A model generated the notes under the pieces. The model searched no databases and was not told where the DNA came from. It worked only from the letters and a program-made list of their open reading frames with translations. Position numbers and translations under genes: made by a program. A stretch of DNA of 51,802 nt, from the sequence record NC_031050.1; one strand, written 5' to 3'. This DNA comes from Escherichia phage vB_EcoS_NBD2. Each line of letters starts with the position of its first letter. The stretch's first letter is position 1. Below, piece after piece: positions 1 to 44,946 of the stretch.

Positions 1-9
1 GGGTAACAG

Positions 10-38
10 TTGACAACAACCGCGCTACCAGGCACAAT
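10..38 (+). promoter_or_regulatory. sigma70-like promoter TTGACA-17-CACAAT
   Basis: Hexamers at 10-15 and 33-38, upstream of first + strand gene. Confidence 0.45.
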
Positions 39-69
39 GCAGCCATCCACAACCAAAGGAGAAATAACC

Positions 70-576
70 ATGTCAGAGAGAACGTTAGCAAATATCGTGC
101 GCCACATCGCAACCCAGGCGCTCGCCCATGAAGAGCAGGTGTTGGCCGTGTCATTGCCAGCCATCGTGCAAAACCTCGACCCAGACGGCGCGCCGATGCC
201 AGGCACCGAAGAAATGGATGCAGCCGTTGCCGCGCTCAAAAAGAAGATGACAAAATCATACATCACGATCACCATCAACCGCATGAAGGATGTGCAGGCC
301 GTCAATAAATCTGCCGTCGCCCGATTCTTCACGTGTGACGATCGCGGCGTGGCAATGCTGGAAGTCGGATTTAAGGAAGGCAACACGACACGCGAACGGG
401 GCGCAATCCAAACAGACCGCACGCAGTACAAGCGCGGATATCATGACGGGTTAGACAAGGCGATCGCATTCGTGCCAGATTTCGTGGATTACTCCGACGA
501 GGAAACACTCATCGCTCGCCGCCTCCTGGTGGAAATGCGCGCTCACCTGGCGACGCTCAAGGAAGGTGCAGAATGA
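70..576 (+). CDS. hypothetical early protein
   Basis: ORF 10..576 trimmed to ATG at 70 with RBS aaaggag upstream; the ATG at 10 sits inside the -35 hexamer of the upstream promoter. Confidence 0.55.
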   Translation: MSERTLANIVRHIATQALAHEEQVLAVSLPAIVQNLDPDGAPMPGTEEMDAAVAALKKKMTKSYITITINRMKDVQAVNKSAVARFFTCDDRGVAMLEVGFKEGNTTRERGAIQTDRTQYKRGYHDGLDKAIAFVPDFVDYSDEETLIARRLLVEMRAHLATLKEGAE

Positions 577-779
577 AAAAGCACAGAATCGTTTTAGTCG
601 ATACGGTAACGGCGCTTGGCGATCCGGTCAAGTGGTATGCTGCCCAGGTTCGGGTTGCATTCTTCTGGTGGGTTACGATTCATCACTTTTCACAATTGCG
701 TGATGCGCGTTACTGGTTACACCAGAGCGGGGCAACAAAAAGAATGCTGACGGAAAAAGTGTTAAAGGTAATCGAATAG
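573..779 (+). CDS. hypothetical protein
   Basis: 68-aa ORF, ATGA start/stop overlap with upstream gene. Confidence 0.45.
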   Translation: MKKHRIVLVDTVTALGDPVKWYAAQVRVAFFWWVTIHHFSQLRDARYWLHQSGATKRMLTEKVLKVIE

Positions 780-819
780 CACGAATTGTTAAACGTGCCC
801 GATCTGATTAGGGCATAAT
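777..819 (+). promoter_or_regulatory. motif promoter (TAGCACgaaTTGTTAAAC, 22 nt, CATAAT)
   Basis: Motif 777-794, -10-like 814-819. Confidence 0.55.
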
Positions 820-850
820 GCTTTCACACCAACGAAACGAGGCAACAAAC

Positions 851-1294
851 ATGCAGACTGCAAAACTCTTGGCAATCCTGAAACGCATTGATGACCTGAA
901 CGCACAGATCTTTTCTGGTAGCCTGGAAGGTGACGAACTGACGGCAATCACCAATCACCGCAATCAACTTGCATTGCAGTATATGAACGGTCTGGAAGAG
1001 GTAGAGTTAGTCAAGCCTGGTGAGCGTGTCGTTTCTGGCTTTGCTGCAACCGTCCTGGCAATCCACAAAGAATGCGGAATCCAGTTGCGCTATGCGGCAT
1101 TCATGGCTGATTCATGTGATTACACCATCGTTGGGCGAGGGGCTGAATTCATGGCATGGATTGCCAGCATCAAGGCGAAGTACAAAGAAGCGCATCCAGG
1201 TTGGATGTATGGCGCAGACACGATCGGCAATCAGCACCATTTCACAAGCTATATTGTGTCGGGCGCTTACATGGTCGATAGCACTAATTGCTAA
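851..1294 (+). CDS. hypothetical protein
   Basis: ORF 818..1294, start placed at ATG 851 after RBS aacgagg; preceded by motif promoter 777-819. Confidence 0.55.
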   Translation: MQTAKLLAILKRIDDLNAQIFSGSLEGDELTAITNHRNQLALQYMNGLEEVELVKPGERVVSGFAATVLAIHKECGIQLRYAAFMADSCDYTIVGRGAEFMAWIASIKAKYKEAHPGWMYGADTIGNQHHFTSYIVSGAYMVDSTNC

Positions 1295-1321
1295 AACAAC
1301 AATCAGGGGCTATGCAATAAT
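1279..1321 (+). promoter_or_regulatory. motif promoter (TAGCACtaaTTGCTAAAAC, 22 nt, AATAAT)
   Basis: Motif 1279-1297; -10-like 1316-1321 lies in the loop of hairpin GGGGCTAT/ATAGCCCC. Confidence 0.55.
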
Positions 1322-1350
1322 AGCCCCACACCAAACGAGAAGGAAACACC

Positions 1351-1590
1351 ATGAGCGTCACCATTACGCACACAATGAAAATGCGCGTCGAATCGATGCC
1401 ACTGGAAGCAAGAATCATCGGAGTTTATCAGGGTGATGATCTGGTTGATTTCGTGTTTAAGCCTAATCGCATCGAAGTACACGACGACATAATCACTTTC
1501 CTGGATGCGCACGGCGCACATCGTGGCGAAGGGTTCACGGCGGAGGTGAGCTTTAAGCGCGGAACAATCCTGAAAGTTGAGGTGAAGTGA
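1351..1590 (+). CDS. hypothetical protein
   Basis: 79-aa ORF with RBS gagaagga; preceded by motif promoter. Confidence 0.55.
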   Translation: MSVTITHTMKMRVESMPLEARIIGVYQGDDLVDFVFKPNRIEVHDDIITFLDAHGAHRGEGFTAEVSFKRGTILKVEVK

Positions 1591-1907
1591 TGAAACGATT
1601 TTCACTACTGGCACCAATCGCACTTCTTGCAGCGCTAACCATTGCATTAACCGGATGCGACAACTCAACCCGCGTGCCAGTTGAGCAGCGCGGAAAAGTG
1701 CAGGTTAATACGGCTGAATCAGGCCGCGTGCAGGTTCGCAAGATCAGTGAATTTCGCGACGATCTGGCTTACGATGATTATCGCGGAGTGTACATCATCA
1801 CGGACACCGAAACGGGGCAAGAGTTTATCGGCGTTAGCGGCGTTGGTATCAGTGCGATCGGGCAGCACAATTGCGGTAAAAATTGCTGGCGCAAAGACGA
1901 ACGATAG
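1587..1907 (+). CDS. putative lipoprotein
   Basis: N-terminal signal peptide followed by lipobox-like LTGC; start overlaps stop of upstream gene. Confidence 0.55.
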   Translation: MMKRFSLLAPIALLAALTIALTGCDNSTRVPVEQRGKVQVNTAESGRVQVRKISEFRDDLAYDDYRGVYIITDTETGQEFIGVSGVGISAIGQHNCGKNCWRKDER

Positions 1908-1947
1908 CACGAATTGCTAAAACTCATCATCGGGGCTATGCCATAAT
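1905..1947 (+). promoter_or_regulatory. motif promoter (TAGCACgaaTTGCTAAAAC, 22 nt, CATAAT)
   Basis: Motif 1905-1923, -10-like 1942-1947 within hairpin. Confidence 0.55.
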
Positions 1948-2023
1948 AGCCCCATACACAGCACGGGAGCACAGCGCGATGAATGGCGTCGAGCCTCCCA
2001 CACCAAACGAGAAGGAATAGGAA

Positions 2024-2557
2024 ATGATGTTAGAAATAAAGGCAAGCAAGGTTATCCCTGGGCAGATGATGGCAGTTGTTGGCGAAACCCGAATTGATAT
2101 TCCCGATTGGGTTTATAGCGTGGCGGTAGATGCAGATGGCGAATTGTGGGGCTTCTGCTCAATGGCGGAACCAATGCGCGATGGCGAAGTGTGGAACGAT
2201 CACACCAGCGCCGAACAATCACGCGTTGAGTTGCTGGGAGACTTCAAGGGCGGCGTTGTTGGCTGGGCTGACTCATTGACAGTTATCGATCGCGAGCCGA
2301 AGAAGAAGCCTAAAGCAGATCGCCGCGTGCTTCGTGGTCTGGTTCTGGATAGCATCACGCGCGACGTTGAGGCAGGCGAGTTGGGCGCACGCAATACAGC
2401 GGCAATCATTCGCGATCTGGATGTGGCGACGTTCAACGGCTACACAACGTTAAAGCTTGTGCAGGCATTCGCCCTGGCTGGCTATGATATCCGCAACACT
2501 CACACGATGAAGGCATTCGAAGCCATCGATCGCAAGGTTCAAGAGGCCTGGGCATGA
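2024..2557 (+). CDS. hypothetical protein
   Basis: 177-aa ORF, RBS gaaggaa, preceded by motif promoter. Confidence 0.55.
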   Translation: MMLEIKASKVIPGQMMAVVGETRIDIPDWVYSVAVDADGELWGFCSMAEPMRDGEVWNDHTSAEQSRVELLGDFKGGVVGWADSLTVIDREPKKKPKADRRVLRGLVLDSITRDVEAGELGARNTAAIIRDLDVATFNGYTTLKLVQAFALAGYDIRNTHTMKAFEAIDRKVQEAWA

Positions 2558-2658
2558 GCACGCTCGCACCCATTATCATCACAATCTGCGTGTGCCTCGC
2601 TATCGTCGTGATCTCAAGGCTCATCGTAACGGCTATCCGCATCAAGCGGGATGAATAG
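2554..2658 (+). CDS. small hydrophobic peptide (34 aa)
   Basis: ATG 2554 overlapping upstream stop; translation MSTLAPIIITICVCLAIVVISRLIVTAIRIKRDE is one predicted TM helix; below the ORF-track length cutoff. Confidence 0.35.
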   Translation: MSTLAPIIITICVCLAIVVISRLIVTAIRIKRDE

Positions 2659-2698
2659 CACGAAATGACAAAACGGCTGGCTCACTGATTGGTATACT
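2656..2698 (+). promoter_or_regulatory. motif promoter, degenerate (TAGCACgaaATGACAAAAC, 22 nt, TGgTATACT)
   Basis: Motif 2656-2674, extended -10 2690-2698. Confidence 0.5.
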
Positions 2699-2729
2699 TC
2701 TTTCCATACCAACACAGGAGCCAGTTACC

Positions 2730-2915
2730 ATGCAATACAAAACGATTTACACCCACTGCGGCAAGGCCTTTACAGCTAACGCTGACTCAATCGAATATCT
2801 GCCCTGGTTCGGCGTATGGAAGATGTGGAAAATCACATCAAGCGGATATGAAGAGTACTACCTCCGCAAGATGTATGTTGCCGAAGTCATTGAGCATGAC
2901 GAATTTTTCAACTAA
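2730..2915 (+). CDS. hypothetical protein
   Basis: 61-aa ORF, RBS aggag, preceded by motif promoter. Confidence 0.5.
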   Translation: MQYKTIYTHCGKAFTANADSIEYLPWFGVWKMWKITSSGYEEYYLRKMYVAEVIEHDEFFN

Positions 2916-2955
2916 TCACCAATCAGGGGCGCAAGCCCCTTTCAAGGAATAATCC

Positions 2956-3333
2956 ATGAAACGCATTAAAGTTAAATGCCTGGCAGTTGACCGTTACATT
3001 TCCGAGTTTTACACCCCTGGCAAGTGGTACACCCTGGAAGTTATTGAAAAGCTGGATATTGCCCAGCAGACCCGCGAGATTCCAACCGATCGCGATGGTT
3101 GCTCACTTCGTGTTAGCCGTGAGCGCGGCGACAATTACCGCTATCGTGTTGCGGGCTATGAAGGCACGCTGTTTGACTCGAAGCCGTGGCGCTTCCGCAA
3201 GAAGAATCATTTTTGCGTTGATATCGACTACAGCAAATGCGCTCGCTCAATCCGTCGCCAGGCTCGCAACGTAGCCAAAGAGCTTTATTCGTGCGGCAAT
3301 CTGGAGAAGATCGCGCGCAGCTATGGAAAATAG
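2956..3333 (+). CDS. hypothetical protein
   Basis: 125-aa ORF, RBS aagga. Confidence 0.55.
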   Translation: MKRIKVKCLAVDRYISEFYTPGKWYTLEVIEKLDIAQQTREIPTDRDGCSLRVSRERGDNYRYRVAGYEGTLFDSKPWRFRKKNHFCVDIDYSKCARSIRRQARNVAKELYSCGNLEKIARSYGK

Positions 3334-3373
3334 CACTTTTTGTTAAAACGCCGAATCGGGGTTGCGCTATAGT
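3331..3373 (+). promoter_or_regulatory. motif promoter (TAGCACtttTTGTTAAAAC, 22 nt, TATAGT)
   Basis: Motif 3331-3349, -10 3368-3373. Confidence 0.55.
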
Positions 3374-3404
3374 AACCCCATCAACAACGAACGAGGAAAT
3401 GCAA

Positions 3405-3620
3405 ATGCGCCTTTTATGCACATTCAGCCAAACGAAAAATTTCGTTGCTGGCAAGGAGTACGAAAGCGAAGTTGTACGGCGTTGCGGGATGGATTTCAAC
3501 GAGGTTAAGGGTGAAAGCGGCTTTCCCGTATGCCTTCAGCCTGGCGATAGCGCCCGCGATGTATCAGCTTTTTCCGGTCACAAACTGTTAGCGGACTTTC
3601 AACCAGTAGAGGATCAGTAA
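3405..3620 (+). CDS. hypothetical protein
   Basis: ORF 3237..3620 trimmed to ATG 3405 downstream of RBS gagga and motif promoter 3331-3373. Confidence 0.45.
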   Translation: MRLLCTFSQTKNFVAGKEYESEVVRRCGMDFNEVKGESGFPVCLQPGDSARDVSAFSGHKLLADFQPVEDQ

Positions 3621-3622
3621 TA

Positions 3623-3901
3623 ATGGAACGTTTTATCAAGATCAAATCGGATGGCGGTTATCACCTGGCGGCTGGCATGGAGGGCTGCATTGTTCGCCTG
3701 AAAGATATGCTGGGAGGCTTGGCGGTTGTTCATGCTCCAACGCTGGGGCTTTACTGCAAGCCTGAAAATAGTTTCCTTGCGAAACCTTTGGGCGTAACTG
3801 GCGAGCCTAATGATTACTTTTTCGGCACGGAAATGTATGAAGAGGTTGAAAACCCGTTCGCGCACTGGAATAAGATTAAGGGGGCACCTTGCGCAAGCTA
3901 A
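3623..3901 (+). CDS. hypothetical protein
   Basis: 92-aa ORF immediately after previous stop. Confidence 0.5.
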   Translation: MERFIKIKSDGGYHLAAGMEGCIVRLKDMLGGLAVVHAPTLGLYCKPENSFLAKPLGVTGEPNDYFFGTEMYEEVENPFAHWNKIKGAPCAS

Positions 3902-4131
3902 CCCGCGATGAAGAGCGTTTTAAATCGTGTCTCAAGAAGAGCAAGAGCAAAACCATTCACCTTTCAACGAATGGATCTCAACTCTTCTGGTACTTCAAGG
4001 ATGTTGATCAGACGGGCTGGCATCCTGAAACCATCACGGATCTGATCCGCGATGACCTTATTCAAATCAGGCTCATGGTTGGCGGCGGCGCTGGTGTCGC
4101 ATACTACCAGGGCATAACTTGGAGTAAGTGA
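3889..4131 (+). CDS. hypothetical protein (possible TTG start)
   Basis: ORF begins at TTG 3889 with strong RBS aaggggg 6 nt upstream; no in-frame ATG near the start. Confidence 0.35.
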   Translation: MRKLTRDEERFKSCLKKSKSKTIHLSTNGSQLFWYFKDVDQTGWHPETITDLIRDDLIQIRLMVGGGAGVAYYQGITWSK

Positions 4132-4132
4132 A

Positions 4133-4339
4133 ATGCAGATCTACACATCGCCAGGCGGCGCGCAATATCTTGTTTTTCGCGGGCTGGTATATTTCAAGCC
4201 AGTAGACGGCGGCGAGGTTAGAATGTCAGATATGGGGGTTGGTCGATTCCTTGACCTGATCGCCAAAGGATTCATGACATACAGCCGCACCGTCAACCCA
4301 GCATTAGCGTATAGGCCGGAGCACTGGAAACAGCACTAA
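4133..4339 (+). CDS. hypothetical protein
   Basis: 68-aa ORF directly after upstream stop. Confidence 0.45.
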   Translation: MQIYTSPGGAQYLVFRGLVYFKPVDGGEVRMSDMGVGRFLDLIAKGFMTYSRTVNPALAYRPEHWKQH

Positions 4340-4373
4340 TTGCTAAAACTTGCCCAGGGGCATTTGATAGAAT
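4331..4373 (+). promoter_or_regulatory. motif promoter (CAGCACtaaTTGCTAAAAC, 22 nt, TAGAAT)
   Basis: Motif 4331-4349, -10 4368-4373. Confidence 0.5.
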
Positions 4374-4413
4374 GCCTCTCATCAAGTTAACGCAACCAAC
4401 AAACGAGGCAGTT

Positions 4414-5004
4414 ATGACTATTCAACGATACACAATGCGAAGTGTAAATGGAGAGCCTGAAATGGTGGCTCACGGCGCAGGGGCGTATGTAACCTACGCA
4501 TCACACGCCGAAGAATTGCTCCGCGTACAGGGCGAATTAGACGCCTTAAAAGACGGCTTAAAACGTCAAATTTTCGCGCCACTTGAAAAAGCCATGATGA
4601 ATGCGCTTATTAAAACAGCAATGCAGGCAACGCATACCGTCTACACCGTCAACCCATGCGACAAGCTGACTTCCGAGCGAGTGCGTGAAATTATGGATGC
4701 CCAGATCGGAGCGGGGGTAATCAGCCTGGCGGAAGTTGAAGAGCGCGGTTTCGCAACTGGCGGATTTATGGCAATCCCAATAACACGACCAGATCCAGAA
4801 TCCCTGCTTTGCATCAAATCGGACGCCAAAAGCTTCAAGGCTGGAGAGTCTTACCAGTGCGAGGCCAACAAAGACGGCGCTTTGTTCGTAACGCAAGATG
4901 AATTCGTTTCCGATCTGAATGAAGATGATTACTGGCACGTCACGGACGGCGGCGCGTATTACATCGTCGAAACGATCGCGGGTAATGCCTACTTTAAGAA
5001 GTAG
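4414..5004 (+). CDS. hypothetical protein
   Basis: ORF 4372..5004 trimmed to ATG 4414 after RBS aacgagg; preceded by motif promoter. Confidence 0.55.
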   Translation: MTIQRYTMRSVNGEPEMVAHGAGAYVTYASHAEELLRVQGELDALKDGLKRQIFAPLEKAMMNALIKTAMQATHTVYTVNPCDKLTSERVREIMDAQIGAGVISLAEVEERGFATGGFMAIPITRPDPESLLCIKSDAKSFKAGESYQCEANKDGALFVTQDEFVSDLNEDDYWHVTDGGAYYIVETIAGNAYFKK

Positions 5005-5044
5005 CACTTTTTGTTAAACGGGCACGTGTGCTGACTGGTATCAT
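5002..5044 (+). promoter_or_regulatory. motif promoter (TAGCACtttTTGTTAAAC, 22 nt, TGgTATCAT)
   Basis: Motif 5002-5019, extended -10 5036-5044. Confidence 0.55.
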
Positions 5045-5075
5045 GTGCCCACACCAACCAAATGGAGAGGCACCA

Positions 5076-5705
5076 ATGAATGCACTTTACAGCCATATCA
5101 AGCGCCACATTGAGCAGCGCCCGAACAAGCCAGTTTTCATCTTTGACTTTGACGGCACCTTGTCTGACGGATCGCACCGCCTGGACAGACTGCCAACCGA
5201 AAACCTTCACCTTACTGAATCATGGCAGGAGTTTAACGAGCTTTCGGCATTTGATGCGCCGTTTGAGGACACCATTCAGGTGATGAAGGCTTGTTATCAA
5301 TTCGGCACCGTCATTATTTTGACAGGCCGCAGCGATTCGGTGCTTAATCTTTCCGTTCAATGGTTGCTTGACAATGACGCTGATTATTATGATTTCCTGG
5401 TGATGCGCGAGGCAACCGATAACCGAAAAGACACGATCATCAAAGAAGAGTTTTTGCGCTTCATTGGACTTCATCGCATTACCGCCGCCTGGGATGATAG
5501 CCCGAAAGTTATCGAGCATTTCCGAGGCCTGGGCATCACAACTTATCAGGTTTGCGACTACGGCGACAACGTTCACGCTGGCTTGAAGTCTCACGGAGTA
5601 AGCGAGCTTAAGGCGGAGTGCGATCACATCTGGGAGCGTCACAGCACTGGTGACGATTATTATGATTGCTGCGTCAGTTGCGGCAAATCGAAGGGGATTA
5701 AATAA
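5076..5705 (+). CDS. HAD-superfamily phosphatase (nucleotidase or polynucleotide 3-prime-phosphatase-like)
   Basis: HAD motif I FIFDFDGTL near N-terminus; ORF 5028..5705 trimmed to ATG 5076 after RBS ggagagg. Confidence 0.6.
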   Translation: MNALYSHIKRHIEQRPNKPVFIFDFDGTLSDGSHRLDRLPTENLHLTESWQEFNELSAFDAPFEDTIQVMKACYQFGTVIILTGRSDSVLNLSVQWLLDNDADYYDFLVMREATDNRKDTIIKEEFLRFIGLHRITAAWDDSPKVIEHFRGLGITTYQVCDYGDNVHAGLKSHGVSELKAECDHIWERHSTGDDYYDCCVSCGKSKGIK

Positions 5706-5707
5706 CA

Positions 5708-6325
5708 ATGGCAACCATCATCATTTTGAACGCGCCACCGCGCGCGGGTAAAGACACGATCGCGAGCATTATCAATGAGCAATACGGCTTGCAGGTTGTG
5801 AGCTTTAAAACGCAGATGTTCAACATCGCTCGCGCCATCCTGGGCGGCGCTGATTTCGAAAACCCATTCATGCGGGTTTACAATACCGACGAGAAAGACA
5901 CGCGCAAGCTTGATTGCCTGGGAGGGATGACTTGCCGCGAGTTCATGATCTGGATTAGCGAAACCATCGTGAAACCGAAGTTCGGGAAAAAGCATTTCGG
6001 CTGGCTTATGGCTGACCTTCTCACCGAAATGGAAGCAGATCAGGATCTGACGATTTGCAGCGATGGCGGATTCCCTGACGAAGTGGAGGCGCTTATTGAT
6101 TGCGGTCACAAAGTCAAGCTGGTACGTATGCACCGTGAAGGCTTCGACTTCGGCAATGATAGCCGCGATTACATTAATCTTTCGCCGGAGTATCTCGCGA
6201 AGCCTGGCGTTGAGGTTATGGATCTTAAGTTGCAGCACGGCTCGCCGCAAGATGCAGCCGATACGATCGCCGCAATGTTCGTGCGCCCTCATCATGTCGA
6301 TTGGTCTGATGATATTCCCTGGTAA
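5708..6325 (+). CDS. deoxynucleoside monophosphate kinase-like P-loop kinase
   Basis: N-terminal P-loop NAPPRAGKDT resembling the T4 gene 1 dNMP kinase P-loop (SGKDT); 2 nt after the phosphatase stop. Confidence 0.55.
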   Translation: MATIIILNAPPRAGKDTIASIINEQYGLQVVSFKTQMFNIARAILGGADFENPFMRVYNTDEKDTRKLDCLGGMTCREFMIWISETIVKPKFGKKHFGWLMADLLTEMEADQDLTICSDGGFPDEVEALIDCGHKVKLVRMHREGFDFGNDSRDYINLSPEYLAKPGVEVMDLKLQHGSPQDAADTIAAMFVRPHHVDWSDDIPW

Positions 6326-6326
6326 A

Positions 6327-6369
6327 TAGCACTTTTTGTTAAACCCTCTTCGGAGGGTTTTGTTATAGT
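6327..6369 (+). promoter_or_regulatory. motif promoter overlapping a terminator hairpin (22 nt, TATAGT)
   Basis: Motif 6327-6344, hairpin CCCTC-ttcg-GAGGG 6344-6357, -10 6364-6369. Confidence 0.55.
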
Positions 6370-6400
6370 TACTCCATCGAAACGAAACGGAGCGACGGAA

Positions 6401-6625
6401 ATGATTAAGTCAATCAAAGTTAAGTGCATCAAGTCAACTGGCGGCGCATTCATGAAAGGCCAGATCTACAACGCAAGCATGAGTGATGGGGATTGGTGCG
6501 TTAAAGGGGTTGATGATTACAGCTACACAACGTTACGCGGAATGTGGGGAACTATCTACTATTGCAGCCTTGACCGCAAAGTAAGATTCACCTTTGAACC
6601 AGTAGAAAAAGAGGATTTAGAATAA
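6401..6625 (+). CDS. hypothetical protein
   Basis: 74-aa ORF, RBS ggagcgacggaa, preceded by motif promoter. Confidence 0.5.
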   Translation: MIKSIKVKCIKSTGGAFMKGQIYNASMSDGDWCVKGVDDYSYTTLRGMWGTIYYCSLDRKVRFTFEPVEKEDLE

Positions 6626-6915
6626 TGTCTATGAACGCAATCGCAAATATCACCGTTGACCTGAAAGCAAAGATTCAGTACACGATCCCAGAATCCGGCA
6701 CTTTCCTTTTCGCATGGGCTTACCGCGATCAGCCGTTCGCCGCTACTTATCAATGGCGCTCTGGTGAGCTTGCCGTGATGACGGATTCAGGTTACGAGAT
6801 CGCAGGAGTTGGCGCAGCGGAAGAGTATTACCCGCTTCCAGATCTCAATCGCATCGTTGCTGGCGAAGATACCGCATCAAAATTCATCGCTATCGTGGTG
6901 ATCGATGCAGCATGA
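6625..6915 (+). CDS. hypothetical protein
   Basis: 96-aa ORF, start overlapping upstream stop. Confidence 0.5.
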   Translation: MSMNAIANITVDLKAKIQYTIPESGTFLFAWAYRDQPFAATYQWRSGELAVMTDSGYEIAGVGAAEEYYPLPDLNRIVAGEDTASKFIAIVVIDAA

Positions 6916-7183
6916 AAAGGCCAACATTTCACGAAGCAATGATTATTGCTTTACTTATGCTTACGAGCGCGGCGGCATTACGCGCAATCTTATTCTTCGC
7001 ATTCATACAGGGCGCAAAATGAAAACTTTCCTGATCTTCATGGCTGGCTCAATCATGCTGACAGCAACAACCGAAGGCGTAACGCCGTTAATCGCAGGCG
7101 GCCTTATCGCCTGGGCTTATTACCGCTGCGGGCACGATGACGGATTCAAGGCCGGAAAGCGAAACATCTTAACTGGCAAATAG
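6905..7183 (+). CDS. hypothetical protein, possibly membrane
   Basis: 92-aa ORF with hydrophobic C-terminal half; start uncertain (alternative ATG about 7019). Confidence 0.35.
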   Translation: MQHEKANISRSNDYCFTYAYERGGITRNLILRIHTGRKMKTFLIFMAGSIMLTATTEGVTPLIAGGLIAWAYYRCGHDDGFKAGKRNILTGK

Positions 7184-7223
7184 CACGATTTGTTAAAAGG
7201 GCATTCATCCTGATTGGTATAAT
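7181..7223 (+). promoter_or_regulatory. motif promoter (TAGCACgatTTGTTAAAAG, 22 nt, TGgTATAAT)
   Basis: Motif 7181-7199, extended -10 7215-7223. Confidence 0.6.
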
Positions 7224-7253
7224 GCCCACATCAACCACGTAGAGGAATAAATC

Positions 7254-7715
7254 ATGAAACAAGTTGCAATTTGTACTCACTCAATCACCCGCGATTTCGT
7301 TGTTGGCGAATCGTATGAAATCAAGCCAAAAAACGGCGGGCGCGGCTTTTACGTTGGCGGTAACTGGACGGGCTACGCATACGACAGCGAAACCCCCGAT
7401 TTAATCGACGTGCGCGGCGTTAACAGGACGATTGCCAGCTTCAACAAGGGAATCGCACGCAAGAAAAAAAGCCTTCTCAAAATGCTTGTGCGTGCGCATG
7501 TGGTGTATGCAAAATCGCGTGGATGGGGTGATAGCAAAAACGGCGCTCATAAATCCTGGAGCGGCACGCCATACAAGAGCGCGCACGATTGGGCGCGTTG
7601 CTTTGCCCTGGGCTATGACCTAAAAGCGATTGAGCAGGACGCGGAAGCGGAAGGCCAGCCAGTTGATCAGGAGTTCGTAAACTGGTTCGTTGATGAGCAG
7701 ATGAGTTATTATTGA
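7254..7715 (+). CDS. hypothetical protein
   Basis: 153-aa ORF, RBS agaggaa, preceded by motif promoter. Confidence 0.55.
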   Translation: MKQVAICTHSITRDFVVGESYEIKPKNGGRGFYVGGNWTGYAYDSETPDLIDVRGVNRTIASFNKGIARKKKSLLKMLVRAHVVYAKSRGWGDSKNGAHKSWSGTPYKSAHDWARCFALGYDLKAIEQDAEAEGQPVDQEFVNWFVDEQMSYY

Positions 7716-7740
7716 TTGCTGGCGCGAAGTCCTGCATAAT
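7712..7740 (+). promoter_or_regulatory. canonical sigma70-like promoter TTGATT-17-CATAAT (no motif)
   Basis: Hexamers 7712-7717 and 7735-7740. Confidence 0.5.
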
Positions 7741-7786
7741 GCGGGGCTTCATTCAAGCAACCACAAACCAATCAGAGGAAATCACC

Positions 7787-8218
7787 ATGAAATTACGTTG
7801 CCTTTTTGTTTCAACCTCCATGTATTCCGCCGTAGCCGCTCGCCTGTTTGATGTTGGCGCGGAGTATCTGGCAAAGCCTCGCCCTGGTTCGCAGATTGAG
7901 GCGGTCGATATCATCACCAAAAACCCAGCGCGAGAGGGTAACGTTGTGTTAACCGGATTCGTGAACGAGTACACCGGAAACGTTGACATCGTGGCTGGTG
8001 GTGGAATTGTCGCCACTTTCACAAGTCCGAAGGCATCGCGCCTGGCCAAGTCAGAAAAGCGAGTGCCACACAAAGCAGACGGCACGGGGCAAACTGACAA
8101 GCGCCGTTTCCGCCGCGTTTGCCGCCAGTATTGCAAACTTCGCTTCATCAACCCTGCGTTTACGTGCCCAGAGTCACACCGCCAAATGCAAAAGCTGGCG
8201 CAATTCCACCGCCGATAG
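7787..8218 (+). CDS. hypothetical protein
   Basis: ORF 7712..8218 trimmed to ATG 7787 after RBS agaggaa; preceded by canonical sigma70-like promoter. Confidence 0.5.
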   Translation: MKLRCLFVSTSMYSAVAARLFDVGAEYLAKPRPGSQIEAVDIITKNPAREGNVVLTGFVNEYTGNVDIVAGGGIVATFTSPKASRLAKSEKRVPHKADGTGQTDKRRFRRVCRQYCKLRFINPAFTCPESHRQMQKLAQFHRR

Positions 8219-8258
8219 CACGAATTGCTAAAACTCCCCTGGGGTAAGCTGTTATAGT
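8216..8258 (+). promoter_or_regulatory. motif promoter (TAGCACgaaTTGCTAAAAC, 22 nt, TATAGT)
   Basis: Motif 8216-8234, -10 8253-8258. Confidence 0.55.
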
Positions 8259-8289
8259 TACCCCATCAAAACAAACCGGAGCAGCAAAA

Positions 8290-8520
8290 ATGAAAAATAA
8301 CCCACTGGTGATGATTGTCCGCACAACCAACCGCGTAGAGCCTGACGCTCTGACGCTGAAAGAATGCGGTTTCAAGGTTGGCGATGTCGTTGAAATTGAT
8401 GGTTACTACCGCGACGGAACCGCGAGCACTCACGCAATTCGCGAAGGCCTGGGAATCCGCGTTGGCGACAATATCAGCCTTGAGAGTGACGAGTTTGTTA
8501 TTGTGGAGGGTTCCTTATGA
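8290..8520 (+). CDS. hypothetical protein
   Basis: 76-aa ORF, RBS ggagcagcaaaa, preceded by motif promoter. Confidence 0.5.
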   Translation: MKNNPLVMIVRTTNRVEPDALTLKECGFKVGDVVEIDGYYRDGTASTHAIREGLGIRVGDNISLESDEFVIVEGSL

Positions 8521-8822
8521 TCTGGCTTCACACTTACGGAATCGGCAAGTTCGGGCGCAAGATCCGAAAGAGCATTCACACCAGCGAGCAAGAGGCGCTG
8601 GATTCGCAAAAGGTTTTAGGCGGAACCGTCGAGCGATTCCATAGTGATGCAGACGTTGGCATTGAGAAGATGCACATCACCAACGCCATTAACGACGAAC
8701 TAAGCGAAATTATCGACGATTTCAGCAAGATTGATCCGGCGTTTTACGGCTCAAGCGGTTGGGATTGCAAGAAGTTGCGAGCAATTAACATGGTTAGCCA
8801 GATTATCGAAGGGGATTATTGA
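8517..8822 (+). CDS. hypothetical protein
   Basis: 101-aa ORF, ATGA overlap. Confidence 0.5.
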   Translation: MIWLHTYGIGKFGRKIRKSIHTSEQEALDSQKVLGGTVERFHSDADVGIEKMHITNAINDELSEIIDDFSKIDPAFYGSSGWDCKKLRAINMVSQIIEGDY

Positions 8823-9056
8823 ATGTTCGGACTTAGTGAAGCGCACTGGAACATTGTGAAAAGCCAGGCTCGAAAGCTGAATGAAGCGGTTAAGGCAATG
8901 CCTGAGAAAGACCGCAAAAATGATCGCCTAATGATTGAGGTGATCAGCAAGCACCACGAGCCGATCGCAACACTGATCGAGCGTTTAAAGTTCACCTGGA
9001 CGGCTGGCTACCTTGCTGGGCGAGTTGGAAACAAAACAAATGGAGATTATGAGTAA
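8823..9056 (+). CDS. hypothetical protein
   Basis: 77-aa ORF contiguous with upstream gene. Confidence 0.45.
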   Translation: MFGLSEAHWNIVKSQARKLNEAVKAMPEKDRKNDRLMIEVISKHHEPIATLIERLKFTWTAGYLAGRVGNKTNGDYE

Positions 9057-9262
9057 TGTTCACTCACTTACCGAAGAAGGGCGAAATCATCCGTTGTGAT
9101 TCAGTTGTTGGGGCAGCGCCGTTTATGGTTGGCGTGCAGTACACCGTTGAGCACATCGATCGCAAGTTAGGGCACGTTTACGTATACGGCGACGAGGGTA
9201 ACTTAGAAGCGATCGATTACCCTCATGACGCGTTACACGGAAAGTTTTCAAAAGTTAGTTGA
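9056..9262 (+). CDS. hypothetical protein
   Basis: 68-aa ORF, start overlapping upstream stop. Confidence 0.45.
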   Translation: MFTHLPKKGEIIRCDSVVGAAPFMVGVQYTVEHIDRKLGHVYVYGDEGNLEAIDYPHDALHGKFSKVS

Positions 9263-9358
9263 CGGCATCGGCTCTGATTGGTACATTAGAACCGTAGACG
9301 AAAGAGGCGCTTAGTCGCAACGGGCAGCACGATTGCTGCACTACAATTTACAGCGTCA

Positions 9359-9386
9359 TTGATGGCGCTTTCATTCGGGGCATAGT
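9359..9386 (+). promoter_or_regulatory. candidate promoter for tRNA (TTGATG-16-CATAGT)
   Basis: Hexamers 9359-9364 and 9381-9386, about 38 nt upstream of tRNA 5-prime end. Confidence 0.3.
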
Positions 9387-9423
9387 GGTAAGCCCGCCGT
9401 AGACCCGTAAGCGGCACAAATTC

Positions 9424-9511
9424 GGAAGGATGGCAGAGAGGACGATTGCGCGCGGTTGCTAACCGTGAAGCCGGAAACGGCTCAAGGGTTCGAATCCCTT
9501 TCTTTCCACCA
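9424..9511 (+). tRNA. tRNA-Ser (anticodon GCU), class II with long variable arm, CCA encoded
   Basis: Hand-folded cloverleaf: acceptor GGAAGGA/TCTTTCC (one G-U), U8, D-stem GCAG/TTGC, anticodon stem CGCGG/CCGTG, loop TTGCTAA (U33, GCT, A37), variable arm GCCG-gaaa-CGGC, T-arm AAGGG-TTCGAAT-CCCTT, discriminator A, CCA. Confidence 0.8.
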
Positions 9512-9524
9512 ATCAGAGGGTTAC

Positions 9525-9713
9525 ATGATGGTTTATTCTGTGAAGCTTACGATCCTGTTAATGGGCAGGACTTGCGCATCATGTAAGCAAGAATTCAGTT
9601 GCAGAGTTGAGGCCGAAAGCGAGCAAGACGCAGTGACGAAAGCAAAGGCACTTTCTGGAGCCGATCCAGATTTCAATAAATTTCTCGTTAACTATGTAAG
9701 GGCTAAAAAATGA
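9525..9713 (+). CDS. hypothetical protein
   Basis: ORF 9456..9713 trimmed to ATG 9525/9528 because the upstream part overlaps the tRNA; RBS agaggg. Confidence 0.45.
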   Translation: MMVYSVKLTILLMGRTCASCKQEFSCRVEAESEQDAVTKAKALSGADPDFNKFLVNYVRAKK

Positions 9714-9937
9714 ACGTAGCATTCTTCGTTTTCGGTTTTATCGTGGCGGTTGTCCTGGTGATGTGGCGATCCTTCAAGTGGGTTAAGGCCAAAGCCAGTA
9801 AGGGCGAATATGCCTCTGTTATCTACGATCCAGTAAAGAAAGAGTATCGCGTAACCGGACAGTATGCCGGACTAGCGCAAAAGCTGGCAGATATCAGGGC
9901 AGGCCGACAGCCTGGCGCTATTAAGTACGTTGATTGA
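9710..9937 (+). CDS. small membrane protein
   Basis: N-terminal hydrophobic helix MNVAFFVFGFIVAVVLVMW; followed by intrinsic terminator. Confidence 0.5.
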   Translation: MNVAFFVFGFIVAVVLVMWRSFKWVKAKASKGEYASVIYDPVKKEYRVTGQYAGLAQKLADIRAGRQPGAIKYVD

Positions 9938-9945
9938 TAAACTAA

Positions 9946-43174: not shown

Positions 43175-43204
43175 CCAGCTATACCAACCAAAGAGGAAAA
43201 CATT

Positions 43205-43312
43205 ATGAAAAAGTTTGTTTTAGGCTACGTAATCCCTTTCGTTCTGGGCGCTGTAGTCACCGCCGCTTTACTTTCCGTCATTCACCTGGCATCAAATTTT
43301 AAAGGGTTCTAA
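43205..43312 (+). CDS. small hydrophobic peptide (35 aa)
   Basis: ATG 43205 after RBS agaggaaaa and motif promoter; one predicted TM helix; below ORF-track cutoff. Confidence 0.4.
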   Translation: MKKFVLGYVIPFVLGAVVTAALLSVIHLASNFKGF

Positions 43313-43313
43313 A

Positions 43314-43490
43314 ATGAAAGTTCGCTGCATTCGGAATGATTCAAAATCACTGCCTTACTATGTCGGAGCAGTATATCGCGCGGTTGATATCGGCGGTATG
43401 TATGAGATCCGCGATGGTCAAGGCTCCGCAATTCACGCGCCGCTTGAAGGTCACTATCTTGAATTTATTCCGATAGAAGAAAAGAAATAG
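43314..43490 (+). CDS. hypothetical small protein (58 aa)
   Basis: ATG 43314 one nt after previous stop; followed by terminator; below ORF-track cutoff. Confidence 0.35.
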   Translation: MKVRCIRNDSKSLPYYVGAVYRAVDIGGMYEIRDGQGSAIHAPLEGHYLEFIPIEEKK

Positions 43491-43510
43491 AATCATCACC
43501 TTACCCAATA

Positions 43511-43534
43511 GGAGCCTTTCGAGGCTCCTTTTTT
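43511..43534 (+). terminator. intrinsic terminator (GGAGCC-tttcga-GGCTCC plus T6)
   Basis: Same stem as four other terminators. Confidence 0.65.
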
Positions 43535-43615
43535 GTGCTTCTCGTTTGTCAAAAAGTGCTGTATTATTGGCCTTACTTAATTAAATCATTGACAACTATT
43601 TCAAAGGGGGATCTC

Positions 43616-43831
43616 ATGCGCGAGGTCATTAACGCTATCACTTCCGGCGCTGGCGGCGCTACATTCACCGGAGTTGCAACGGGGCAGCTAGCCATTGCGT
43701 TCGCAACCTTCGTATTTTTCGTCCTGTTTGGCTTCTGGGGCGCATACTGGAAATACAAAGACAGCAAGGCTATCCGCCAGGCCATTGACGCAGGCGACTT
43801 GCAAACGGCGCTAAAAATCAGGGGTAAATGA
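43616..43831 (+). CDS. holin
   Basis: ORF 43535..43831 trimmed to ATG 43616 after RBS aaaggggga; 71 aa with central hydrophobic helix and charged C-terminus; directly upstream of endolysin. Confidence 0.55.
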
Positions 43832-44319
43832 CGATGAAGAAGATCGCAAGCATGGCATTTGGCGCAGCGCTTGCCGCAACGGTTCCGTTAATCGAAAAGT
43901 TTGAGGATGTCAAATACGATGTTTATTACGATATCGCTGGCATCCCTACTGTGTGCGCAGGCATCACAGGATCAGACGTTATCATTGGTAAGCGGTACAC
44001 GAAGCGCGAGTGTGACGCATTGCTAATGAAGCATTTAGCGGTTGCGAAGGCGGAAGTTGACAAGCAAATCAAAGTTGATGTGCCGGACTCTTTCCGCGCG
44101 GCAATGTACAGCTTCACCTACAACGCAGGCACGGGCGCTTATCGTAAATCAACCATGCTGAAACTCACCAACGCTGGCGATCTCAAGGGCGCGTGTAATC
44201 AGTTGTGGTCATGGGTTTACTTCTACAACCCGAAAACGGGCAAAAAAGAGAAGTCGAAAGGCCTTAAAAATCGCCGTGGCTTCGAATATGAATATTGCAT
44301 GAAGGATCTGAAAAAATGA
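43828..44319 (+). CDS. endolysin, T4-lysozyme-like with N-terminal signal-anchor-release (SAR) segment
   Basis: Weakly hydrophobic Ala/Gly-rich N-terminus followed by E...D...T catalytic pattern ([21 protein letters not shown]). Confidence 0.65.
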
Positions 44320-44735
44320 AAAGGCTTTACAAATTAATCAAGTGGATTTTCATCGGGTTAAGCGCAATTGTCATTTGTGGTTGTTCGGCAACGTCTGCCC
44401 TGACTGGTTTAATCGGCAGCAAGCCAGAAATCAGCGCGCAGGCTGGCGCGGAAAACACGAAACAGACGGTTGGGATCAATGGCAAGGTTGACCAATCCAG
44501 CGAGGTTGAGACAACCATCAAAGATTCAACCGTTGGCAAGGTTGACACGTCTAACGGAAAGAAAACCAGCGCCTCAAGCATAACGGCTGACACCATCAAG
44601 GCCGATAAGATTGAGATCAGGAATCAGGAAGGCGGCGATGTTGCCGGATGGATTGCGCTATCTGGCGTTGTTGGTCTGTTTATTTTGCTGGGCGCGTCTG
44701 CGCTACGGAAACGACGATATGAGAAAGGAGCCTAA
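44316..44735 (+). CDS. unimolecular spanin (T1 gp11-like)
   Basis: N-terminal signal with Cys-containing lipobox-like region (IVICGC) and a single C-terminal TM helix. Confidence 0.55.
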
Positions 44736-44752
44736 CGGCTCCTTTTTTTTAT
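44728..44752 (+). terminator. intrinsic terminator after lysis cassette (GGAGCC-taac-GGCTCC plus T9)
   Basis: Overlaps spanin stop codon. Confidence 0.7.
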
Positions 44753-44946
44753 TTGAATCTCTGCACGAGCAAGATCAATTCCCCATCCTGGTTGCATAAC
44801 GTGTGCTCCATCTTCTTACCCGCCCGCATTGAGGTATTGATCAGAGACAGGAGCGCGGCGTTTAACTGATCTTCAGTCAACCCATGCTCCGCGCTGTACC
44901 GGATCACCTCGTTAATTAGCCCCTGCCTTTCCGAATAATTCCTCAT
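44749..44946 (-). CDS. hypothetical protein
   Basis: 65-aa ORF, last gene of - strand operon starting at 46859. Confidence 0.35.
   Translation of the reverse strand: MRNYSERQGLINEVIRYSAEHGLTEDQLNAALLSLINTSMRAGKKMEHTLCNQDGELILLVQRFK

Follow-up and report, generated by a model that had tools for sequence, protein, structure and literature searches.

Organization of the lysis locus

The window, by which we mean the whole stretch of 51,802 nucleotides analysed here, is the permuted whole genome of a Drexlerviridae phage (Vilniusvirus) that the Klebsiella phages vB_KM5a1_KLB19 (PP526029) and vB_KaeD_HazelMika (OL539457) match at ~97% over most of its length. Reading of the sequence placed a lysis cassette of three plus-strand genes at positions 43616-44735, exactly where the sequence-only reading had proposed one, namely a holin gene (43616-43831, 71 aa), an endolysin gene (43828-44319, 163 aa) and a gene for a unimolecular spanin (44316-44735, 139 aa). 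Neighbouring genes are joined by ATGA stop/start overlaps at both junctions, with the endolysin ATG overlapping the holin stop at 43828-43831 and the spanin ATG overlapping the endolysin stop at 44316-44319. A Shine-Dalgarno-like GGGGGA (43606-43611) lies ahead of the holin ATG, while AGGGG (43820-43824) precedes the endolysin start and AAGGA (44302-44306) that of the spanin. The cassette is bracketed by two intrinsic-terminator-like hairpins, one on each side, and the spanin gene is its last gene before the downstream terminator.

Profile searches assigned each product to a phage protein family. The holin matched phrog_2877 over its full length (E 1e-34), the endolysin matched both the Pfam family Phage_lysozyme (PF00959, E 1e-32) and phrog_7 (E 1e-49), and the spanin matched phrog_1804 (Rz-like spanin, E 1e-47); the Pfam search gave no model for holin or spanin, and the NCBIfam search gave no match at the curated cut-off. 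A tblastn search with the spanin returned 1167 phage records, and the order holin-endolysin-spanin was the same in all 18 related loci examined. Given these PHROG and Pfam matches, the number of tblastn records and the gene order kept in 18 loci, the three open reading frames are real genes and not chance occurrences. The earlier naming of their products as holin, SAR-type endolysin and single-component spanin is supported by the family matches, by homology to phage T1 and by the annotation of KLB19.

The module is an ordinary three-gene T1-type lysis cassette, in which a small holin is combined with a lysozyme that exports itself and a spanin made as one piece. Lysis very probably follows the pinholin / SAR-endolysin / u-spanin scheme described for T1-family cassettes (PMC6139136). 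Of 522 Drexlerviridae genomes, 508 have an exonuclease-holin-endolysin-spanin module (PMC13164509). The cassette itself is already known, being annotated in a published phage of 99.6% identity and homologous to the T1 prototype, so that its significance beyond correct annotation is slight: the standard lysis module of the Drexlerviridae is confirmed in a T1-like phage.

The holin

The holin is a homologue of T1 gp13, with which it shares 63% identity. Hydropathy analysis revealed two adjacent segments of unequal strength, of which the first (residues 7-23) is weakly hydrophobic and rich in Gly, Ala and Thr (KD 0.74, 74% G/A/S/T) and the second (residues 25-45) is a strongly hydrophobic TM segment (KD 1.9-2.2, above 2 over 19 residues), followed by a basic C-terminal tail. 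A single residue, Gln24, joins the two segments with no loop in between. Conservation of the first segment is high, and A7, T9, G13, G14, A15, G19, A21, T22, G23 and Q24 do not vary. For the first TM domain of the pinholin S21, the corresponding values are KD 0.21 and 58% G/A/S/T.

Several candidates for additional start sites or regulatory products at this gene were considered. A dual-start (antiholin) motif was sought in the holin gene, which has a single Met start only. An in-frame TTG at 43589 was rejected as an alternative start, because relatives do not keep it in frame, and the upstream ATG that gives four relatives an MVDH/MEDH extension is absent in the window. A 35-aa TM open reading frame at 43205-43312 was dropped as an antiholin candidate, since of the 18 loci examined KLB19 alone has an identical copy and just one other weak match turned up.

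The holin may have a pinholin topology. The holins of TLS and T1 have been proposed as class II pinholins, and the TLS paper gives the holin two TM domains (PMC11447400); the GenBank record of T1 (NC_005833) describes gp13 as a single-TM protein. In view of that record and of the missing loop between the segments, two TM domains arranged as in a pinholin can be proposed for the window holin only tentatively. A BLASTP comparison with S21 68 yielded no alignment (E 22), so that the holin is not placed in the S21 family and its resemblance to S21 is a functional one only.

These same observations would be accommodated if the 71-aa protein were a canonical large-hole holin, or a single-TM holin of N-out/C-in orientation, and the loss of membrane potential occurring as holes form were enough to activate the SAR endolysin. 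TM-grade hydropathy is reached by residues 25-45 only, just one residue separates the two segments, the T1 record assigns gp13 one TM domain, similarity to S21 68 is lacking and SAR endolysins also work with non-pinholin holins, for example those of P1 and N4. We nevertheless regard this alternative as unlikely, because the weak first segment is highly conserved and resembles in composition the SAR-like TMD1 of S21, and because the specialist literature places T1-family holins among the pinholins (PMC6139136, PMC13164509, PMC11447400). The holin is most likely a pinholin, following the literature assignment made for T1-family cassettes (PMC6139136, PMC11447400).

The region upstream of the holin gene

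Upstream of the cassette, at 43314..43490 on the plus strand, lies a gene for a 58-aa standalone SH3-like protein of the DUF7244 family (PF23896, E 4e-29; phrog_4788), a homologue of T1 gp14. A pattern scan located an intrinsic-terminator-like hairpin with a T-run (AGGAGCC-TTTCG-AGGCTCCT; 43510..43535, plus strand) between this gene and the holin gene, and a hairpin with a T-run occupies the same place in all 16 related loci that have a DUF7244 gene, besides the window. The same scan found the second hairpin, GGAGCC-TAAC-GGCTCC, extended by A/T pairs and followed by T8, at 44721..44756 on the plus strand, where it overlaps the spanin stop codon at the convergence with minus-strand genes; a hairpin with a T-run follows the spanin gene in every related locus examined.

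As an intrinsic terminator precedes the cassette, the question arises from which promoter it is transcribed. The sequence-only reading had called the upstream promoter not obvious, and rightly so: a scan of 43530-43615 for consensus sigma-70 promoters was empty. On inspection, the hexamer TATTAT at 43562-43567 has no usable -35 at 16-18 nt, and a perfect TTGACA at 43589-43594 was rejected as part of a holin promoter because only TCTCAT, overlapping the start codon, lies 17 nt downstream. Folding of the leader (43536-43640) gave a structure no better than that of shuffled sequence (z +0.86), and RNAalifold applied to 13 intergenic regions returned only a misaligned terminator stem.

The region does contain two plus-strand blocks, TGTATTAT (43560-43567), which includes the -10-like TATTAT, and ATTGACAA (43588-43595), both of which are candidates for a promoter or regulatory region and are conserved in 9 related intergenic regions. 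The relatives sharing both blocks have holins ~61% and endolysins 44-45% identical to those of the window. We tentatively consider it possible, though doubtful, that the cassette is an autonomous late transcription unit, insulated by a conserved terminator and driven or controlled by a conserved element that departs from the sigma-70 consensus and is made up of TGTATYAT and ATTGACAA (43560-43595). Such an element might serve as a late promoter dependent on an activator, or bind a regulator, and in this way set the timing of lysis in T1-like phages, the late transcription of which is poorly understood. If the cassette is such a unit, the SH3/DUF7244 gene would not be co-transcribed with the lysis genes. 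We found no earlier account in the literature consulted of the terminator and the conserved non-consensus blocks between the SH3 gene and the holin gene, both of which bear on the transcriptional control of lysis timing in T1-like phages.

The terminator between the DUF7244 gene and the holin gene also makes membership of the former in the cassette uncertain. A 2026 paper proposes that the DUF7244 protein has an accessory part in Drexlerviridae lysis (PMC13164509). On this reading the module would have a fourth component, an SH3-like accessory that binds the cell wall and works together with the endolysin. The PF23896 match would agree with this, as would the finding that 188 of 522 Drexlerviridae genomes have the gene, in each case adjoining the lysis module (PMC13164509), and its presence in 16 of our 18 related loci. 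However, the 58-aa protein has neither a signal sequence nor a hydrophobic segment and would accordingly stay in the cytoplasm until lysis, the hairpin with T-run parts its gene from the holin gene in every locus having it, which makes it the last gene of the transcription unit of the exonuclease, and most Drexlerviridae genomes with the three-gene cassette lack it (PMC13164509). We consider the proposed fourth component improbable.

The endolysin

The endolysin is a GH24 (T4-lysozyme-type) muramidase with a SAR-type signal-anchor at residues 6-22. Among proteins of solved structure it is closest to the SAR endolysin R21 of phage 21 (3HDE, E 1e-36; 47% identity), the R21 sequence used in the alignments being identical to 3hde_A; its identity to T1 gp12, a predicted SAR endolysin (PMC11447400), amounts to 61%. 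Residues E26, D35 and T41 align column for column with E35, D44 and T50 of R21 (E-x8-D-x5-T), which confirms the T4-lysozyme-like E...D...T arrangement read earlier from the sequence. For the start codon, position 43834 (Met3) is better spaced from AGGGG but was rejected, and 43828 was kept because homologues conserve the first Met without the second (MTIKK, MSLKN, MRLKN); the choice between the two leaves the hydrophobic segment unchanged.

This segment, as judged by hydropathy, consists of 17 uncharged residues preceded by K4-K5 (KD 1.93, 53% Gly/Ala/Ser/Thr), compared with 23 uncharged residues, KD 2.11 and 63% G/A/S/T for the SAR segment of R21. The N-terminus had been described as weakly hydrophobic and Ala/Gly-rich; the 17-residue run is indeed weakly hydrophobic and rich in Ala, but it is not rich in Gly. 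Residues 1-22 are free of Cys, the first being C43, and a Cys-free, weakly hydrophobic N-terminal segment indicates the class II SAR type, in which control is exerted by refolding and not by disulfide isomerisation. The weakly hydrophobic character of the segment is kept in all 19 family members.

The N-terminal segment is probably a retained, non-cleaved SAR anchor; its sequence by itself is compatible with retention and with cleavage. For 57_3Lys, a Drexlerviridae endolysin of 44% identity, a preprint (10.64898/2026.09.09.750462) reports that SignalP 6.0 flags the equivalent segment and that lysis is inhibited by sodium azide, which acts against Sec export. Cleavage by signal peptidase is conceivable, since the run is short and AXA-like sites, among them A14-L15-A16, lie within it. 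An ordinary cleavable Sec signal peptide, yielding a processed, soluble periplasmic enzyme that is controlled otherwise, would suit the 17-residue run, these small-X-small motifs and the 57_3Lys results, in which the azide effect denotes Sec dependence and is compatible with a cleaved or a retained signal, but it is highly improbable, given that the closest solved relative R21 is a demonstrated SAR endolysin, that candidate cleavage motifs shift position among the 19 family members while the weakly hydrophobic character is conserved, that Ala/Gly/Ser-rich SAR domains carry small-X-small motifs by composition, that an exported, cleaved and active muramidase would cause premature lysis and render the conserved holin pointless, and that curated annotations name such proteins SAR endolysins. 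The enzyme is possibly useful to enzyme developers, as a 44%-identical Drexlerviridae endolysin has been reported to be active on Gram-negative cells from outside.

The spanin

The spanin comprises a lipoprotein signal (residues 1-22), a periplasmic domain (24-108), a C-terminal TM segment (109-130) and a cytoplasmic tail (131-139). Its N-terminus starts with the basic MKRLYKLIK and continues with a hydrophobic stretch and the lipobox I20-C21-G22-C23. The motif ICGC fits the PROSITE PS51257-type lipobox rule, which allows Cys at -2. G22, C23 and S24 are the same in T1, in p111 and in each of the 19 family sequences compared. The +2 residue after the lipidatable Cys23 is Ser24 in the window and in all relatives, and the lack of Asp at this position agrees with sorting to the outer membrane. 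The 85-aa periplasmic part is free of Cys. Residues 109-130 are 22 uncharged residues (KD 2.19 over 19 residues, Hessa-scale sum -0.2 kcal/mol) followed by the basic tail RKRRYEKGA, and a C-terminal TM segment with a basic tail is found in all 19 family sequences. A single-sequence AF2 model, computed with no alignment, predicted with confidence only two terminal helices, at residues 2-33 and 107-137, the latter with a pLDDT of ~76-81, whereas pLDDT was below 50 over most of residues 34-87, too low to confirm the mainly beta-strand periplasmic domain predicted for the T1 gp11 family.

Both the lipoprotein-like signal and the single C-terminal TM helix that had been ascribed to the product of 44316..44735 are therefore present, and the comparison with T1 gp11 made on the same occasion turned out to reflect true homology, going beyond a similar layout: tblastn against the T1 genome gave E 8e-17 over 99% of the length, and the two proteins are 35-36% identical. 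Kongari et al. 2018 assign a protein to the family if it shares 40% identity or more with a member across 40% or more of its length, and by this definition the spanin belongs to the T1 family through its 42% identity, across 87% of its length, to phage e4/1c, a listed member. Judged by its sequence, the product of 44316-44735 is a member of the T1 gp11 family of unimolecular spanins, and it adds a further sequence to this family of as yet unsolved mechanism. Complementation of a lambda Rz/Rz1 defect has been demonstrated for T1 gp11 only (PMC6139136).

Proposed course of lysis

The gene structure, homologies, catalytic triad, lipobox, hydrophobic segments, translational-coupling overlaps and flanking terminators are established directly. 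Nothing contradicts the cassette assignment, and several steps of the following course are inferred only, by way of homology and of the models established for phages 21 and T1. The endolysin would be exported by the host Sec system during its synthesis, and its weakly hydrophobic N-terminal segment would tether the inactive enzyme to the inner membrane. The 71-aa holin would build up in the inner membrane and trigger at a set time, whereupon the membrane potential would collapse. Upon depolarisation, the endolysin anchor would leave the bilayer, and the GH24 muramidase, with E26, D35 and T41, would refold into its active form and degrade the peptidoglycan. The spanin is predicted to be held by the lipid anchor on Cys23 in the outer membrane and by its C-terminal helix in the inner membrane; with the murein gone, it would be free to disrupt the outer membrane, probably via fusion with the inner membrane.

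Comparison with known systems

Compared with S21 68 of phage 21, the window holin has a similarly small size (71 aa versus 68 aa), a weak first segment rich in Gly, Ala, Ser and Thr that is followed by a strong TM segment and a basic C-terminus, and a SAR endolysin as partner. Unlike S21 68, it has no periplasmic loop between the two segments, and its gene carries no dual-start (antiholin) motif.

The endolysin shares with R21 (3HDE/3HDF) and with RrrD of the E. coli prophage DLP12 (4ZPU) the GH24 fold (for R21, 47% identity and E 1e-36), the E-x8-D-x5-T triad in the same columns and a weakly hydrophobic, Cys-free N-terminal segment. However, its N-terminal region is ~9 residues shorter, with nothing equivalent to the linker TGPSGNDG of R21, and the hydrophobic run therefore stops 4 residues before the catalytic Glu, and a 6-residue insertion is found near residues 133-140.

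Phage T1 has a corresponding cassette of gp13 holin, gp12 endolysin and gp11 u-spanin (NC_005833). Gene order is the same, adjacent genes overlap or abut, exonuclease and DUF7244 genes lie upstream and a convergent helicase block downstream, and a terminator follows the spanin gene, annotated in T1 at the equivalent place. The proteins are 63% (gp13), 61% (gp12) and 35-36% (gp11) identical, and lipobox Cys, catalytic triad and hydrophobic segments all align. In contrast, the lipobox reads LSGC in T1 and ICGC in the window, the window spanin is 6 residues longer with a diverged TM segment and tail, an HNH endonuclease gene inserted upstream in T1 is absent in the window, and the region upstream of the holin gene is not alignable beyond the terminator.

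The nearest relatives of the locus are the Vilniusvirus phages KLB19 and HazelMika, whose DNA is 99.6% and 99.1% identical over 43200-44800. They differ from the window by few substitutions only, for example S127A in the spanin of KLB19. The spanin is annotated as a hypothetical protein in HazelMika, whereas in KLB19 the same three genes are annotated as holin, SAR endolysin and U-spanin.

Organization and identity of the lysis cassette

Three consecutive plus-strand ORFs encode the holin (43616-43831, 71 aa), the endolysin (43828-44319, 163 aa) and the spanin (44316-44735, 139 aa), in exact agreement with the span 43616-44735 assigned to a lysis cassette in the sequence-only reading. ATGA stop/start overlaps, the classic layout for translational coupling, were read from the sequence at 43828-43831 (holin/endolysin) and 44316-44319 (endolysin/spanin), and each start is preceded by a purine-rich ribosome-binding site (GGGGGA at 43606-43611, AGGGG at 43820-43824 and AAGGA at 44302-44306, all on the plus strand). 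The cassette is flanked on this strand by an upstream terminator-like hairpin found by pattern scan (43510-43529, with a T-run to 43535) and by a downstream hairpin (44721-44748, then T8) overlapping the spanin stop codon. Both terminators share the stem GGAGCC/GGCTCC (43511-43528 and 44727-44742), as is likewise the case at both positions in many relatives.

Family searches matched the holin over its full length to PHROG 2877 (holin; E 1e-34), the endolysin to Pfam Phage_lysozyme (E 1e-32) and PHROG 7 (endolysin; E 1e-49), and the spanin to PHROG 1804 (Rz-like spanin; E 1e-47). Megablast of 43200-44800 matched two phages, Klebsiella phage vB_KM5a1_KLB19 (KLB19; Drexlerviridae, Vilniusvirus; 99.6% identity) and vB_KaeD_HazelMika (HazelMika; 99.1%), and in KLB19 the same three genes are annotated as holin, SAR (signal-anchor-release) endolysin and U-spanin. 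Together with the homology to T1, these matches bear out the initial calls of a holin, a SAR endolysin and a one-piece spanin. A tblastn search with the spanin returned 1167 phage records, the majority from phages of Klebsiella and Escherichia, with T1 among them (E 8e-17, 99% coverage). For comparison, the cassette was extracted from 18 related loci (KLB19, p111, T1 and 15 IMG/VR contigs), all of which keep the holin-endolysin-spanin order.

As a whole, the window is a phage genome of the KLB19 and HazelMika kind in circularly permuted form. Most of it is ~97% identical to the closest phages, the exception being the first ~5 kb, which is more mosaic. This mosaic region (1-5250) contains small genes and matches the closest phages patchily; HazelMika covers 63% of 1-9938 at 88% identity, and the KLB19 match starts at 5259. 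A tRNA-Ser with anticodon GCT at 9424-9511 (+), detected by ARAGORN and Rfam (50.6 bits), is likewise annotated in HazelMika, KLB19 and the LF82 series.

Endolysin

The nearest solved structures are the phage 21 SAR endolysin R21 (3HDE/3HDF) and E. coli RrrD (4ZPU), both at E about 1e-36. Alignment with R21 (47% identity; comparison sequence confirmed identical to 3hde_A) places E26/D35/T41 in the columns of E35/D44/T50, with the E-x8-D-x5-T spacing of T4 lysozyme, as the proposed T4-lysozyme-like catalytic arrangement had implied. Lys4-Lys5 is followed by a 17-residue uncharged run with a mean Kyte-Doolittle hydropathy (KD) of 1.93 and 53% Gly/Ala/Ser/Thr, compared with 2.11 and 63% in the R21 SAR segment. 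The N-terminus had been described as weakly hydrophobic and Ala/Gly-rich; the hydropathy and six Ala fit this description, but there is only one Gly. All 19 family sequences have a basic N-terminus and a weakly hydrophobic 15-17-residue segment up to a conserved P-L-[IL]-E. Because the run is short and holds AXA-like motifs, a cleavable signal stays a minor rival to a retained SAR anchor. As this N-terminal segment contains no Cys, we assign the endolysin to the R21 type ("class II") and not to the P1 Lyz type. For a Drexlerviridae endolysin with the N-terminus MKQKLLISAATAAAIYIAAP, a recent preprint reports that sodium azide inhibits lysis, as expected if export depends on Sec (10.64898/2026.09.09.750462); this N-terminus matches related locus L009, and the protein is 44% identical to the window endolysin.

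Spanin

At the spanin N-terminus, basic residues lead into a hydrophobic core and then the lipobox I-C-G-C23, with Ser24 directly after it. Since the established Lol rule sends lipoproteins that lack Asp at +2 to the outer membrane, the spanin is predicted to be sorted there. G-C-S is invariant in all relatives examined, which carry LSGC, LTGC, VSGC or LYGC; compared with the family's usual LSGC, the ICGC of the window (44373-44384, residues 20-23), with Cys at -2, is a small peculiarity, probably without consequence, as this Cys would go with the signal peptide. The 85 aa of residues 24-108 are free of Cys, in keeping with the Cys-free periplasmic part that PMC6139136 reports for all u-spanins. 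An uncharged stretch (109-130; 19-residue KD 2.19) precedes RKRRYEKGA, so that the lipoprotein-like signal and the single C-terminal TM helix suggested earlier are both recovered. In a single-sequence AlphaFold model, residues 2-33 and 107-137 form helices at moderate confidence, and the middle is not reliably predicted. Kongari et al. require at least 40% identity across no less than 40% of the length for family membership, and by this threshold the spanin belongs to the T1 gp11 family via e4/1c (42% over 87%). In experiments, T1 gp11 itself complemented a lambda Rz/Rz1 defect (PMC6139136).

Holin

The 71-aa protein can be identified as a holin with confidence. After a short N-terminus (MRE), a weakly hydrophobic, highly conserved segment rich in Gly/Ala/Thr (residues 7-23, KD 0.74) is separated by a single Gln from a strongly hydrophobic one (residues 25-45, KD about 2), and the C-terminal tail is highly charged and net-basic. 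The phage 21 pinholin S21 68 likewise combines a weak, SAR-like TMD1 with a strong, hole-forming TMD2, although the window holin lacks an inter-helix loop, and BLASTP against the S21 sequence found no similarity. The T1 GenBank record describes gp13 as having a "single transmembrane domain". T1-family holins have been classed as pinholins from topology predictions and their SAR endolysin partners (PMC6139136, PMC13164509, PMC11447400), and pinholin is the more likely subtype here.

Transcription and upstream neighbours

A consensus scan found no sigma-70 promoter in the interval from the upstream terminator to the holin, in line with the earlier remark that none was obvious. A perfect TTGACA lies too near the holin start codon to act as its promoter element, and TATTAT in the leader, though plausible as a -10 element, has no accompanying -35. 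No significant RNA structure was found in the leader. The blocks GTGCTTCT, TGTATYAT and ATTGACAA (the latter two at 43560-43595) of the 80-bp leader recur in nine relatives, in which identity to the window proteins is about 61% for the holins and 44-45% for the endolysins. The blocks are absent from T1, which has TTGTGT-17-TAAAAT instead (read by eye). The obvious options for cassette expression are terminator read-through or an activator-dependent promoter; as the blocks are conserved though a consensus promoter is absent, they hint that a regulatory site or a late promoter of non-canonical type lies upstream of the holin.

The gene at 43314-43490 (+) encodes a 58-aa SH3-like T1 gp14 homologue of the DUF7244 family (PF23896, E 4e-29), in which no signal peptide or TM segment was found. 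It is present in 16 of the 18 related loci, and in each of these 16, as in the window, the terminator occupies the same position between this gene and the holin; this separation suggests that the SH3 gene may lie outside the lysis-gene transcript. DUF7244 was proposed as a 'standalone SH3' accessory of the Drexlerviridae lysis module in a 2026 paper (PMC13164509), and such a role is possible but unproven. Between the exonuclease and DUF7244 genes there is a 35-aa ORF (43205-43312, +) whose product is one hydrophobic helix, MKKFVLGYVIPFVLGAVVTAALLSVIHLASNFKGF. KLB19 has an identical ORF, annotated as hypothetical; beyond that, there is a single weak match, to an IMG/VR relative (E 0.0015).

Lysis model and comparison with T1

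Taking the observed sequence features and homologies of the cassette together with work on phages 21, P1 and T1, from which we infer the dynamic steps, the pinholin/SAR endolysin/u-spanin pathway is the best-supported model. Sec would export the muramidase, which would stay inactive and anchored in the inner membrane until holin triggering depolarises the membrane; the freed endolysin would then refold and degrade the murein, and the spanin, already bridging both membranes, would disrupt the outer membrane.

T1 shows the same gene order: exonuclease, (HNH), DUF7244 gene, gp13, gp12, gp11, terminator and convergent genes. In alignments, identity to T1 is 63% for holin/gp13, 61% for endolysin/gp12 and 35% for spanin/gp11. 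The locus corresponds to a textbook lysis cassette of the T1 type, as annotated in near-identical genomes and set out in published work.
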